Assembly: GCA_039594295.1 (NCBI GenBank)
Contig: JBCNNR010000018.1
Location: 15,619-79,618 of the forward strand
Source of the DNA: Bdellovibrio sp.
GTDB lineage: Bacteria; Bdellovibrionota; Bdellovibrionia; Bdellovibrionales; Bdellovibrionaceae
DNA length: 64,000 nt
Reading direction: 5' to 3'
How positions within the stretch are numbered: position 1 is the stretch's first letter; each line of letters opens with the position of its first letter. Of the stretch, positions 15,094 through 64,000 are shown piece after piece. The notes under the pieces are model-generated. The model did not search any database. It had not been told where the DNA came from and saw only the letters and a list, made by a program, of their open reading frames with translations. The translations under genes and the position numbers were made by a program.

Positions 15094-16040
15094 AATTTGT
15101 ACGTGTGACCGAGGCAGCAGCATTAGAATCCGCTCGTTGGATGGGGCGGGGCGATGAAAAAGCCGCGGATGCAGCGGCGGTGGATGCCATGAGAAAAGCT
15201 TTCGACGTTCTTCGCATGGACGGCACTGTGGTTATCGGTGAAGGGGAGCGCGACGAAGCGCCCATGCTTTATATCGGTGAAAAAGTGGGAACAAAAACGG
15301 ACGATGCCCCGGCATTGGACATCGCTTTAGATCCACTTGAAGGCACGACAATCTGTGCGACGGGTGGGCCTGGTTCTATTTCTGTGATCGCGGTTGCAGA
15401 AAAAGGAAAATTCCTTCATGCGCCGGACACGTACATGGATAAAATTGCCTGTGGTCCAGGAGCAAAAGGTCAGATCGATATCGATAAAACTCCGACTGAA
15501 AATGTGGAGGCTGTTGCTAAAGCGCTGGGTAAAAAAGTCAGTGACATGACGGTGGTGATTTTAAACCGTCCTCGCCACAAAGAATTAATTGATGAAGTTC
15601 GTAAAACGGGTGCACGTATCCAGTTGATCGGCGATGGCGACGTTTCTGCGGCGGTCTCTGCGGCTTGGCCTGATTCTGGTATTGATTTGTTGATCGGTAT
15701 TGGTGGCGCACCAGAAGGTGTGATCTCTGCGGCAGCGATGCAATGCTTGGGTGGGGACTTCCAGGGGCGCTTGAAATGGAGAAACGAAGAAGAAAGAGCC
15801 CGTGCTTCGAAAATGGGCCTTAAGGACCTCGACAAAAAATTCACTTGTGATGAGCTGGCTAGCGGCTCGGTGATGTTTGTCGCAACCGGGATCACGGATG
15901 GTTCATTGCTTAAAGGCGTTCGTTTCCTTCCCGATGGAAAAGCGAAAAGCCACTCGATTGTGATGCGTTCACAAACGGGCACAATCCGTACAATTGAAGC
16001 GTTCCATGATTTCACTTGGAAGAAAAACAAGAAGTCTTAA
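15072..16040 (+). CDS. glpX: Fructose-1,6-bisphosphatase class II
   Basis: MDRNLALEFVRVTEAAAL, VVIGEGERDEAPML, DPLEGT, APDTYMDK, DGDV, GGAPEGV motifs. Confidence 0.97.
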   Translation: MDRNLALEFVRVTEAAALESARWMGRGDEKAADAAAVDAMRKAFDVLRMDGTVVIGEGERDEAPMLYIGEKVGTKTDDAPALDIALDPLEGTTICATGGPGSISVIAVAEKGKFLHAPDTYMDKIACGPGAKGQIDIDKTPTENVEAVAKALGKKVSDMTVVILNRPRHKELIDEVRKTGARIQLIGDGDVSAAVSAAWPDSGIDLLIGIGGAPEGVISAAAMQCLGGDFQGRLKWRNEEERARASKMGLKDLDKKFTCDELASGSVMFVATGITDGSLLKGVRFLPDGKAKSHSIVMRSQTGTIRTIEAFHDFTWKKNKKS

Positions 16041-60620: not shown

Positions 60621-61817
60621 CTATCGTTGAATGGCGGGTTTGGCATTTCGCCCCAGCCAGAATGCGAGAACTGCGATCACCGTGCCCACAGAAAGAACTG
60701 TGCAGACGCCGGTCCATTGACCCATATTCCAAGCGTAAGAAGCCACAAGGGAGCCAAGGGCTCCGCCCATAAAATAAGAAAACATATAGACCGTGTTTAA
60801 GCGACTGCGAGCATCCTCGCGTAATGCAAAGACTCGGGTTTGGTTCGAGATATGGGCCGCTTGAATGCCGAAATCCAAAATAAAAATACCAATGATCAAA
60901 CCCAGAATGCTCTCACCTGATCCCCAAAGAATCAGAACCGACAATGCCAAAACACTCAGGCCAATGGCGACACCTGTGCGCGGGCCCTTTTTATCTGCAA
61001 CTCGGCCAACTACGGGGGCCGCCATCGCGCCAGCTGCGCCTAAGAGTCCAAACAAGCCAACTTCTTTTGCGCCCATTGCAAAATGCGGAGACGACAAAAG
61101 GAAAATCAATGTTGCCCAGATAGAACTGAAAACTCCAAAGATCATTGCGCCGACCACAGCGGATTCACGTAAGATGGGTTCTTCCTTCACCAACGTGCCA
61201 ATGGATTTAATCAGTCCAAAGTAAGAACCTTTGTAAGTCACTTCACTTGCAGGCAAAACGAACCAAAGACAGCTGGCCAAAACGATCATCAATCCTGCGG
61301 CCGAATAAAATACGGTTCTCCAACCGAAAAGATCTCCTAAAAATCCCGAGATCGTGCGTGAACACAAGATACCAATCAACAAACCACTCATAATAATGCC
61401 GATGACTTTGCCACGGTTTTCGTTGCTGGCTAAATGTGCCGCAAAGGGAATGATCAACTGAGGCACCATGGTGAAAAGGCCAATCAATAAACTCGCAATA
61501 ACCATGATCCACAGACTGTGAGCGGTCGCTGCCATGATCAAAGCACCAGTCACCGCCAAGGATGTGATCACAATTAATTTTCTTCGCTCAAACATATCAC
61601 CCATCGGAACCAGGAACAGCATACCCAAGGCATAACCCACTTGAGTCAGGGTCGGGATGATGCCGACTTCTTTAACGGTCACGCCGAATTCTTTTTGTAG
61701 TTCAGCTAGGAGTGGTTGGTTGTAGTAAAGATTGGCCACACTAAGACCCGTGGCGATCGCCATGATCCAAACAGTGGTGGAGGAAAGTTTATTTGCGGAT
61801 GGGTGAGATTCGGTCAT
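60621..61817 (-). CDS. MFS transporter (YnfM-like)
   Basis: ANLYYNQPLL, P.GD..ERRK, G..MSGLL.GIL.SRT, R.R.N..YM..YF.GGA.GS. Start moved to 61817 because the track start lies inside a terminator. Confidence 0.93.
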   Translation of the reverse strand: MTESHPSANKLSSTTVWIMAIATGLSVANLYYNQPLLAELQKEFGVTVKEVGIIPTLTQVGYALGMLFLVPMGDMFERRKLIVITSLAVTGALIMAATAHSLWIMVIASLLIGLFTMVPQLIIPFAAHLASNENRGKVIGIIMSGLLIGILCSRTISGFLGDLFGWRTVFYSAAGLMIVLASCLWFVLPASEVTYKGSYFGLIKSIGTLVKEEPILRESAVVGAMIFGVFSSIWATLIFLLSSPHFAMGAKEVGLFGLLGAAGAMAAPVVGRVADKKGPRTGVAIGLSVLALSVLILWGSGESILGLIIGIFILDFGIQAAHISNQTRVFALREDARSRLNTVYMFSYFMGGALGSLVASYAWNMGQWTGVCTVLSVGTVIAVLAFWLGRNAKPAIQR

Positions 61818-61840
61818 AGATGAAAGCCTGCAAGTCGAAG

Positions 61841-61871
61841 AAAGAAAAACACCCACTTTGAGGGTGGGTGT
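61841..61871 (-). terminator. Intrinsic terminator after the 64-aa gene
   Basis: Minus strand ACACCCAC-N7-GTGGGTGT followed by TTTTCTTT. Confidence 0.7.
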
Positions 61872-61880
61872 CTGTAAGAA

Positions 61881-62075
61881 CTAATTTGATTTTTTCTTAG
61901 GGGCGCCCGTGATCCCTGTGTGATTGCGCCAGTTGTATTGAGGATCTGTTTTCGTGCGGTTGTGCCAAGCTTCCCATTTTTTCTTAGGGAGCTTGTGGGA
62001 AACATTACCCTTTTCGTCGAAAATATCTGGGTCTTTACCAACTAGGAATTCAAGTACGGATTTCATGATGCCCAT
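61881..62075 (-). CDS. Small 64-aa hypothetical protein
   Basis: GAAGGAG RBS; Trp/Lys-rich; followed by a terminator. Confidence 0.65.
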   Translation of the reverse strand: MGIMKSVLEFLVGKDPDIFDEKGNVSHKLPKKKWEAWHNRTKTDPQYNWRNHTGITGAPKKKSN

Positions 62076-62162
62076 GTGCGCTGCTCCTTCAATAAATACA
62101 GGAGCCAGTATAATGCAGGACCTCGTACGGGGGAATAGGAAATCCTGCCTCGATGCGTTGAA

Positions 62163-62426
62163 TTAAGAGCGTGGGTTCGCGCAAACGTCGATAATGTCGA
62201 GGCCGCGGTCTTCGGAGACTTTGCCAGCGCCTTTGAAGTGGTTAAAGCATTGTTGGGCAGCAACCTGGAAGGCGTCCTCATAGCTCGCTGCTTTCTTTTT
62301 AAACTCAAAAGATTCGCCAGAAAGCTTATATTTGAACGTATATTCCTTTTGAACCGCTTCTGTAGAGATCCATGCAAAGGAACTGCAAGAATAAGCGAGT
62401 ACGAAGATAGTCAAAAATGCTTTCAT
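62163..62426 (-). CDS. Small secreted protein with a Cys pair
   Basis: Signal peptide ending SFA/W; A.Q.CF..F and DIIDVCANPR. Confidence 0.75.
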   Translation of the reverse strand: MKAFLTIFVLAYSCSSFAWISTEAVQKEYTFKYKLSGESFEFKKKAASYEDAFQVAAQQCFNHFKGAGKVSEDRGLDIIDVCANPRS

Positions 62427-62431
62427 ATAAA

Positions 62432-62706
62432 CCCCTTCCGCCTTCGCTTAAAGCTTCGGCGTGACTTTGTCCGCTTTTGGCGGCTGTTGTTACTGTTAGG
62501 TAAAGCACGTGGTGTGCCAAAGAATCTTGCAGGAACCTCAAAAAGACCTTTGTAAGTCTGTGAAATTGCTGCTCTAATCGGTCTCAATTTGAACCGCCCA
62601 GGTGGCCTGTTTACTAGTGAGACAGGTGCCGTGAATGGTGCACCCCCTGTCCAGGGTTTAGGCAGGGGACTCGTCACGCCGAAGCTTTAAGCGAAGGCGG
62701 AAGGGG
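62432..62706. repeat. 34-bp perfect inverted repeat pair enclosing 207 bp (REPIN-like)
   Basis: CCCCTTCCGCCTTCGCTTAAAGCTTCGGCGTGAC (62432-62465) and its exact reverse complement (62673-62706). Confidence 0.9.
62504..62520 (-). promoter_or_regulatory. Sigma54-type promoter inside the inverted-repeat interval, pointing at the 62426 gene
   Basis: Minus strand TTGGCACACCACGTGCT (TGGCAC, GG-N10-GC). Confidence 0.6.
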
Positions 62707-62711
62707 AAGTT

Positions 62712-63503
62712 ATGAAAAAGTTTTTAGTTTCCTTTGTATTGTTCTTGGTGGGCTTCGCGGCCTCGGCGCAAACTATCGTCATCAGTGATATCGACGATAC
62801 GCTTCGCCCTCAGTATGTGCAGGATCTGTCCGATTCTGCAAAATATGTTTTTGATAAAGACAGCTTGTTCATGGGCATGAGTGAGCTTTTGAACGTGGTG
62901 GTCCAAGACACCAATGCTCGTATGTTTTACGTTTCTCGTGCTCCCGAATGGTTGATGGGGCATACGCACACAGAGGCCCTGGAGCGCGGCGGGTTCCCTT
63001 CAGGTGTCTATTTCCCTCGCACGGTTTATTCTAAGGATGAGCACAAGATCAGAGTCATTGTACAGATCCTGGATAAAACTCATCCGACAGATGTGATCAT
63101 GTTGGGAGATAACGGGGAGGTTGATCCCGATGTCTACAGCACGATTGCTCAGGCTTATCCGAAAATTCGTTTTCACCAGTTTATCCGTGATGCCTACAAC
63201 ACGCCTAAATTTGGTGGTGAGGGTTCTTCGCTTTCCCTGGGGCAGCAGTACTTTGTGACTCCCGTGGAAGTCGCTTTAGAGTTAAATAAGCGCGGCTTTT
63301 TGAAAAATAGTTCCGTCCAGCTTTTAGTTGATTACTTGGTACCTCGAATTGTGGCAGAAACGGGGAAACCAAAGCGAGGCATCATGGCCTTCCCTTATTT
63401 TGTGGAATGCCGCGATTTTGTCTGGTCCTGGAATCAGGAAATATCAGACTATCCTTTGCTTAAAAATCTCAAAGCGAAGATCGAAAACCGCTGCTATAAT
63501 TAA
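62712..63503 (+). CDS. App1-like (DUF2183) phosphatidate phosphatase, HAD fold, with signal peptide
   Basis: VISDIDDTL (DxDxT), FYVS..P, .LGDNGE.DP.VY..I...YP; N-terminal signal peptide ending ASA/Q. Confidence 0.8.
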   Translation: MKKFLVSFVLFLVGFAASAQTIVISDIDDTLRPQYVQDLSDSAKYVFDKDSLFMGMSELLNVVVQDTNARMFYVSRAPEWLMGHTHTEALERGGFPSGVYFPRTVYSKDEHKIRVIVQILDKTHPTDVIMLGDNGEVDPDVYSTIAQAYPKIRFHQFIRDAYNTPKFGGEGSSLSLGQQYFVTPVEVALELNKRGFLKNSSVQLLVDYLVPRIVAETGKPKRGIMAFPYFVECRDFVWSWNQEISDYPLLKNLKAKIENRCYN

Positions 63504-64000
63504 TGATTTTAAAATACCAGCTTCCGCAAGTTTACCAAAACCTTCTCCCTCGTGAGATCCTGCAGTTTGAACCGCAGGAAAAAAAGGCCACCTGTGATAC
63601 TTGCGCGATGTCTCGTCCTCGTGAAAAAGGTCCGATCCATTATCGCGAGGATTTAAAATGCTGTACCTTTCATCCGTTCATTCCTAACTTCATGGTGGGG
63701 GCTTTGTTCAGCGATCCCAATGCCACGGAAGCTCATCGTATCTTTCGTACTAAAATGGCCAACCGTGAGTATGCTTTGCCCATCGGTATGGTGGCTCCGG
63801 TTAAGTTTCAAGTGGCCTTCAATAATCGTCAGGAAGGCGATTTCGGCCAACGCGAAGACTGGTTGTGCCCGTACTACAATAAAGAAAAACAGAACTGCAA
63901 CGTGTGGAGAAATCGCGGTGTGGTCTGTACAACGTTCTTCTGTAAAAGCTCCTACGGGGAGCGCGGGATTGAGTTTTGGGATCATTTAAATAACTACCTT
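63503..64000 (+). CDS. Cys-cluster (YkgJ/CxxCxxCC-like) putative Fe-S or Zn protein, runs off the window
   Basis: Not in the ORF track. ATG overlaps the upstream stop: MILKYQLPQ...ATCDTCAM...LKCCTFHP...LCPYY....NCNVWRNR..VCTTFFC. Confidence 0.75.
   Translation, partial: MILKYQLPQVYQNLLPREILQFEPQEKKATCDTCAMSRPREKGPIHYREDLKCCTFHPFIPNFMVGALFSDPNATEAHRIFRTKMANREYALPIGMVAPVKFQVAFNNRQEGDFGQREDWLCPYYNKEKQNCNVWRNRGVVCTTFFCKSSYGERGIEFWDHLNNYL

Follow-up and report, generated by a model that had tools for sequence, protein, structure and literature searches.

Inverted REP-like hairpins around a conserved divergent control region with a predicted sigma-54 promoter in Bdellovibrio

The analyzed stretch of DNA, referred to as the window, comprises 64,000 nucleotides of a Bdellovibrio sp. 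genome (assembly GCA_039594295.1, contig JBCNNR010000018.1, forward-strand positions 15,619 to 79,618), and coordinates are given as positions of the window. Two divergent genes for secreted proteins lie on either side of an intergenic region that is bracketed by the arms of an inverted repeat. The features of the locus are listed below from left to right.

62163 to 62426, minus strand: gene for a small secreted protein of 87 aa (open reading frame with signal peptide and two Cys)
62432 to 62465, minus strand: left arm in the small-gene leader, a REP-like hairpin with a TTTAA loop that belongs to the bulged-A GTCACGCC subfamily
62466 to 62672, no strand: interior of 207 bp, of which interior positions 22 to 202 are an ancestral intergenic control region
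62469 to 62484, minus strand: leader hairpin GCCGCCAAAAGCGGAC, immediately 5' of the left arm
62504 to 62519, minus strand: sigma-54 type -24/-12 element TGGCAC-N5-GTGCT, facing the small gene
62580 to 62668, no strand: palindrome-rich block conserved in ten species, upstream of the predicted sigma-54 promoter
62580 to 62623: palindrome GGTCTCA...GTGAGAC
62606 to 62626: palindrome CCTGT-N11-ACAGG
62644 to 62668: palindrome CCCCTGTC-N9-GGCAGGGG
62673 to 62706, plus strand: right arm in the APP1_cat leader, a REP-like hairpin with the same sequence as the left arm
62712 to 63503, plus strand: gene for a secreted APP1_cat-domain protein of 263 aa (Pfam PF09949, E=4e-19)

The 87-aa protein matched no Pfam family, and its gene was found beside the same intergenic block in nine other species and on one JGI contig. 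According to the downstream gene calls, the APP1_cat gene is the first of an operon and is followed by genes for a 271-aa protein and for SufE.

A read-out of the sequence and a repeat finder placed the two arms 207 nt apart, with complementarity at 34 of 34 positions. Both have the sequence GTCACGCCGAAGCTTTAAGCGAAGGCGGAAGGGG, on the plus strand for the right arm (62673-62706) and as the exact reverse complement for the left arm (62432-62465). When the window was shuffled 100 times with its dinucleotides preserved, the arm match was reproduced in 0 cases. Both arms stop 5 nt short of a start codon (CAT at 62424-62426 on the left, ATG at 62712 on the right), and each folds as (UC)[A]CGCC-GAA-GCU/UUA/AGC-GAA-GGCG(GA) with -10.9 kcal/mol, while the AAGGGG beside the start codon stays unpaired. 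The perfect 34-bp repeat, the equal distances to the divergent start codons and the small hairpin within each arm had all been claimed in a preliminary description of this DNA, and all three were found. At 80% identity the repeat reached 66 nt in the repeat finder (62400-62465 and 62673-62738). This extension consists of the starts of two similar signal peptides (MKAFL.. and MKKFL..) and is also present in relatives that carry no arms. Next to the left arm, the leader hairpin GCGGAC-NNN-GTCAC is similar to a 5' extension in other copies of the repeat family described below and stands where relatives have another hairpin, CTTCAAAACTGAAG.

The arms had also been thought to supply the ribosome-binding sites of both genes. 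However, G-runs 5-6 nt before each ATG are already present in arm-less relatives (AAGGGG on the left and GGGGG on the right), and the core of the REP-like element stops at GGCGGA. The G-run ribosome-binding sites are older than the arms, which do not supply them, and the outer AAGGGG is a pre-existing Shine-Dalgarno run.

The 207-bp interior was single-copy in this genome by blastn, and its positions 22-202 had counterparts of 77-89% identity in nine further species of the genus. Its most conserved minus-strand element consists of TGGCAC (62519-62514), ACCAC and GTGCT (62508-62504), and the GG and GC of this element are invariant in ten species. The motif occurs on the minus strand only, and the genome encodes one RpoN and 14 sigma-54 activator proteins. 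By motif and conservation, TGGCAC-N5-GTGCT is a predicted sigma-54 promoter for the small secreted-protein gene, in agreement with the leftward-only promoter that had been proposed. The conserved palindromes sit 90-165 bp upstream of it. Across ten species, RNAalifold and pair counting gave 0 compensatory pairs for a non-coding RNA in the interior and shuffles equaled the observed values, which lends a structured RNA no support. Since compensatory substitutions are lacking, the palindromes are read as protein-binding sites and not as structured RNA, and they are probably candidate activator (bEBP) binding sites (UAS) and/or the App1 leader. An Rfam scan of 61800-63200 at E<=10 returned only three sub-threshold chance matches. 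In a weak match to narK, the promoter-like 5' end of the match corresponds to the sigma-54-like sequence. A scan of 62100-62800 found no consensus sigma-70 promoter, including for the App1 gene.

While the exact 34-mer occurs at only two sites in the 4.10-Mb genome, and at the same two when up to 3 mismatches are allowed, a sensitive blastn search of the whole genome recovered gapped relatives of the arm, such as GTCACGCCGAAGCTTTAGCGAAGGCGGA, on five other contigs. A regular expression followed by an nhmmer profile identified about 43 family members in this genome, with the consensus ..GGSCYTGTC-CGCC-[G/A][A/T]A-GC-(3-6 nt loop)-GC-GA[A/C]-GG[C/T/A]GG-R. For copy counts, the strict pattern CGCCRWAGC-N3-6-GCGAMGGNGG was used. 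It was found 32 times in this genome against 0 for a reversed-pattern control, 0-20 times in 36 other species of the genus and 0 times in the 24 genomes that represent other genera within the order. The preliminary description had considered the arm a possible common dispersed REP, and the arms are indeed related to a dispersed REP-like repeat.

The closing base pair, which lies outside the search pattern, was T-A in 8 copies, C-G in 9, A-T in 2, G-C in 1 and T-G in 2, so that 22 of 25 copies were paired. This covariation establishes the family hairpin as real. Fold energies in the family ranged from -10.9 to -13.3 kcal/mol. A 3x3 internal loop is kept as GAA/GAA, GUA/GAA, AUA/GAC or AAA/GAC, in which G.A alternates with A.C, and the bulged-A subfamily comprises seven copies including both arms. 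The copies are mostly extragenic and occur after stops, before terminators and shortly before starts, with two or three located inside long open frames. In about one quarter of them, GGAGG or GGCGG stands 5-14 nt before a start codon. Relative to neighboring open reading frames, the orientation was the same in 14/10 and opposite in 12/6, without a clear bias; an initial impression of co-orientation with transcription did not hold against the opposite-strand control.

Inverted doublets with short spacers, minus copy first and plus copy second, were present elsewhere in the genome (e.g., C21:41243-41325 and C45:99984-100079), and several were found in relatives. Dispersal, extragenic bias and inverted doublets are behaviors of REP/BIME-type elements. 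The family combines a hairpin of kept structure with many dispersed extragenic copies and a lineage-restricted, varying number, and the arms are members of this dispersed REP-like family, which is confined to part of the genus, apparently Bdellovibrio. The genome contains 17-18 Y1_Tnp (PF01797) genes, and no family copy lies within 2.5 kb of any of 18 such genes. Over 37 genomes, the number of Y1_Tnp genes correlated only moderately with family copy number (rho 0.46, P=0.004, uncorrected for phylogeny). The hairpin matched no Rfam family, and a full-text search for Bdellovibrio with 'repetitive extragenic palindromic' yielded no paper on Bdellovibrio repeats. The family is apparently so far undescribed.

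The short-spacer doublets, arranged minus-then-plus as at the locus, would suit a REPIN or MITE that moved as one unit with the 207-bp interior as its cargo. Against such a unit, the interior is single in the genome, is orthologous and syntenic in species without arms, and other lineages have one arm alone or one arm together with another partner. The pair is not a short-spacer inverted doublet that replicates as a unit, and we consider movement of the whole segment extremely improbable. The idea of a REPIN whose arms were co-opted as leaders, as raised in the preliminary description, is retained in part: the relation to a dispersed REP-like family and the position in both leaders were found, but the spacer is ancestral and the arms have separate histories.

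The arms and the right-hand site were compared with other genomes and contigs as follows.

G049, G019, G047, G022, G055, G017, G056 and G004: no left arm; no copy at the right site
G054: no left arm; decayed ortholog of the right arm, GTGACGTCAAAGCTTCGGCGAGGCGTAAGGGGG, at the right site
JGI 3300048929 contig (L055): left arm and leader identical to those of the window; right site with a REP of another subtype in opposite orientation
Logan SRR32367919/20 strain (~1% divergent): right site GTCACGCCAAAGCTGTAAGCGAAGGCGGAAGGGA, with 3 substitutions in the arm
Logan SRR28582078: both genes and the identical arm, present at left and right; contigs end 30 nt into each

The left arm is absent in nine other species and is identical in the JGI contig, whose small protein is 92% identical to that of the window. 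At the right site, this contig carries the reverse complement of CGCC-ATA-GC-TTCA-GC-AAC-GGCGG (ATA/GAC type). Both of its REPs point one way, so that the long inverted repeat is absent, and its interior is oriented as in the window. The SRR32367919/20 strain has an App1 protein identical to that of the window, and its contigs cross the right arm into 144 nt of the interior in the orientation of the window. The contig ends of SRR28582078 correspond to a k=31 graph at a 34-nt inverted repeat and show the presence of the arms, not the orientation. Among the genomes and contigs compared, the perfect arm pair was found in this genome only, and patterns of the exact arm and of the interior gave no matches in metagenome and genome contig collections. 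Arm presence is patchy across lineages.

The geometry of perfect inverted arms with an asymmetric promoter inside is suitable for an invertible switch. As proposed in the preliminary description, recombination between the 34-bp arms would flip the 207-bp interior, so that the sigma-54 promoter would face the App1 operon and no longer the small gene, leaving leaders and Shine-Dalgarno sequences intact. That the right arm differs from the ~1% divergent strain at more positions than expected also suggests sequence exchange between the arms. However, a comparison of orientations among strains and species, a check named in the same description, did not bear out a switch. In an alignment of ten species, the interior lies between the same two genes in one orientation in ten of ten, and together with two Logan strain contigs and one JGI contig a single orientation was found in 13 of 13 sequences. 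These cover ten species and two environmental lineages, with the two arm-bearing ones included. The interior is ancestral, and its orientation does not vary between strains and species. A single orientation in all strains combined with an arm that belongs to a dispersed REP, which the preliminary description had named as speaking against a switch, is what was found at the strain and species level.

Further points stand against an inverton. Although a promoter does lie between inverted repeats, the perfect pair is confined to this genome and does not amount to a conserved switch, and the arms are ordinary members of a repeat family of about 40 copies. No tyrosine recombinase (PF00589) was found on contig C10; the genome has 3-4 matches, on C8, C61, C21 and C9, and two of these proteins have about 310 residues, a length that we take as typical of Xer proteins for chromosome resolution. 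No serine recombinase (PF00239) was found in the genome. A length of 34 bp is near the minimum for efficient RecA recombination; inversions would thus be infrequent and unregulated. We regard an invertible promoter as very unlikely.

The identity of the arms calls for a separate account. Between the window and SRR32367919/20, 11 differences were counted over 1098 aligned bases, and 3 of these 11 fall within the 34 nt of the right arm (binomial P=0.004). At position 62681, SRR32367919/20 and G054 have A, and the window has G like its left arm. The left arm is unchanged in the JGI lineage, which is more distant than SRR32367919/20. These substitutions point to an identity that is recent and lineage-specific. 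Its simplest explanation is that the right arm is probably an older insertion, recently overwritten with the sequence of the left arm. Such apparent gene conversion between the arms implies that they interact by recombination, and crossovers would then also be possible. On this basis a nascent switch was considered, in which REPs homogenized by gene conversion would allow rare RecA-dependent inversion and alternate the promoter between the small protein and the App1-SufE operon. It has a very low probability in our judgment; if true, it would be a natural example of invertons arising from REPs.

A selected cis-regulatory leader was considered as well, in which the hairpin would be an operator for an RNA- or DNA-binding regulator that co-regulates both genes. 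The two arms are alike in position and orientation to their genes, and roughly one quarter of the family ends 5-14 nt before a start, with GGAGG as the Shine-Dalgarno sequence. The kept non-Watson-Crick GWA/GAA loop and the co-variation of G.A with A.C (ATA/AAA with GAC) suggest specific recognition. In addition, REPs landed at the App1 site at least twice, which could reflect selection for a leader hairpin beyond mere tolerance. On the other side, the family has no clear orientation bias to flanking genes, and some copies follow stops, precede terminators or lie within two long open frames. The REP at the right site of the JGI contig has the opposite orientation, eight species have the same genes without any copy, and the strict copy number varies from 0 to 32 among species, as for selfish DNA. 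The occurrence of copies in either orientation and of species without copies argues for tolerated selfish DNA, and a selected leader element is unlikely.

We therefore favor, with good confidence, two REP-like insertions around an old divergent sigma-54 control region, and not a switch. According to this reading, two REP-like copies would have been acquired separately, each in one of only two unconstrained spacers, a few bases long, that separate the conserved regulatory block from the G-rich Shine-Dalgarno sequence of the respective gene. Since the arms point outward, the pair is an inverted one. The 207-bp interior is the ancestral regulatory region and not cargo, and would hold the sigma-54 promoter, the activator palindromes and the App1 promoter or leader. 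The left arm may subsequently have been copied non-reciprocally, by gene conversion or template switching, onto a slightly different right copy. Both mRNA leaders would carry a stable hairpin (about -11 kcal/mol), with an unpaired Shine-Dalgarno sequence immediately 3' of it. The effect of these hairpins is likely neutral, or a modest change of mRNA stability or translation.

The family resembles enterobacterial REP/BIME and the RAYT-associated REP/REPIN elements of Pseudomonas, which are likewise imperfect palindromes of about 30 nt with dozens of dispersed, mostly intergenic copies. The occurrence as singlets and as inverted doublets of two subtypes, lineage-specific numbers and conserved hairpin mismatches are shared with these elements, as are copies between operon genes and near terminators. 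In contrast to RAYT-associated REPs, the search within 2.5 kb of Y1_Tnp genes gave no RAYT gene flanked by copies of this family. The window pair also differs from a REPIN in its spacing of 207 bp around ancestral DNA, and the family …TCCGCC-GWA-GC-NNNN-GC-GAA-GGCGGA… has no Rfam match. With its strictly conserved non-Watson-Crick loop, the family can serve as a marker, and its hairpins are candidate substrates of the many Y1 transposase paralogues in these genomes.

Small mobile repeats just upstream of genes and within mRNA leaders are also known as Correia/CREE in Neisseria and ERIC/IRU in enterobacteria, where they can alter mRNA stability or translation. Correia/CREE and ERIC/IRU are MITE-like elements of 100-150 bp with terminal inverted repeats and target-site duplications, whereas each unit in the window consists of one hairpin of roughly 30 nt. 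The locus shows REPs gathering in the only unconstrained bases of a dense control region, with inverted copies apparently homogenized.

Inverted repeats around a promoter segment between genes are shared with E. coli fimS (FimB/FimE), Salmonella hin/hix and the invertons of Bacteroides. Such switches are served by a dedicated or global site-specific recombinase, their repeats are conserved, and both orientations can be detected. The window differs from them in having no nearby recombinase, a repeat pair in one lineage and one orientation in 13 sequences. Assemblies at k=31 break at perfect inverted repeats of such length, which may thereby mimic or hide structural variation.

The predicted promoter resembles sigma-54 promoters with upstream activator sites, such as glnAp2 and nifH, in its TGGCAC-N5-xTGCx form, its GG/GC and the distance of its upstream palindromes. 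It departs from the sigma-54 consensus in the -12 element, with GTGCT in place of TTGCW, and no activator gene is adjacent to the locus. The conserved region before the small secreted-protein gene offers a defined target for studies of RpoN-dependent regulation. A conserved TTGTAA-N17-TCTAAT at 62550-62578, directed rightward, was additionally spotted by eye and is listed as a candidate only.

The intergenic block of ~180 nt at window positions 62487-62667 was 77-89% identical over ten species, a conservation about equal to that of the flanking genes, and no activator gene adjoins it. The block and the leader of the small secreted-protein gene contain the following features:

62487-62667, block with the predicted sigma-54 promoter and three conserved palindromes
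62469-62484, hairpin directly downstream of the predicted sigma-54 start

Compared with the leader of the G049 locus (L034) and with those of other lineages, the sequence of the hairpin varied while its shape was kept. The stem and loop were CCGC-CAAAA-GCGG in the window, CTTC-AAAA-CTGAAG in three other species of the genus (G049, G019, and G054), and AACGAA-CCAA-TTCGTT in a fourth (G047). In the mRNA of the small gene, the hairpin could form a conserved stem-loop at the 5' end.

The locus of an environmental lineage (L055, JGI 3300048929) was compared with window positions 62365-62520 and 62530-62711. Between the signal-peptide codons and the sigma-54 promoter, left arm included, it was near-identical to the window, whereas to the right of this promoter it looked like G049. 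The mosaic pattern of the aligned sequences suggests a recombination breakpoint within the intergenic region.

On the other side of the block, App1 is followed by a gene for a 271-aa Cys-rich protein without a Pfam family and then by the SufE gene. A single operon combines a secreted APP1-like phosphatase with these two proteins. The stretch concerned is the following:

63503-64000 (827-2079 in another locus sequence, L052), one-base overlap (ATGA) of the App1 gene with the start of the 271-aa protein gene, then the SufE gene

Paralogues with a Y1_Tnp domain (IS200/RAYT-type HUH transposase, about 200 aa each) numbered 17-18 in the window's genome (G000), 16 in G054, 12 in G049, and 0-7 in most other species of the genus. 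None of the 17-18 in G000 was flanked by the REP family of the arms. Three of 18 places serve as examples:

C12:176255-176518, Y1_Tnp
C1:38815-39084, Y1_Tnp
C24:32036-32305, Y1_Tnp

Elsewhere in G000, the REP core was embedded in a longer composite repeat (...GATGCGCGAACCCGTCCGCCGTAGCTTTAGCGGAGGAGGGCGGGCGACGGTGAGCCNGGATGGCGTGTCG...) with at least four copies, which could be either a structured RNA or an element of larger size. REP-like sequences also occurred within two long open frames:

C1:139704-139743, composite repeat
C12:47813-47848, composite repeat
C23:32415-32450, composite repeat
C24:22498-22536, composite repeat
C36:32007-32054, REP-like, in a frame of 689 codons
C34:109189-109301, REP-like, in a frame of about 560 codons

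In frame, the latter two would encode Ala-rich linker segments (…PAEASAKVG… in C36 and …ATAKASATAV… in C34). Either the resemblance is due to chance, or REPs were inserted in frame into the linkers of these proteins.
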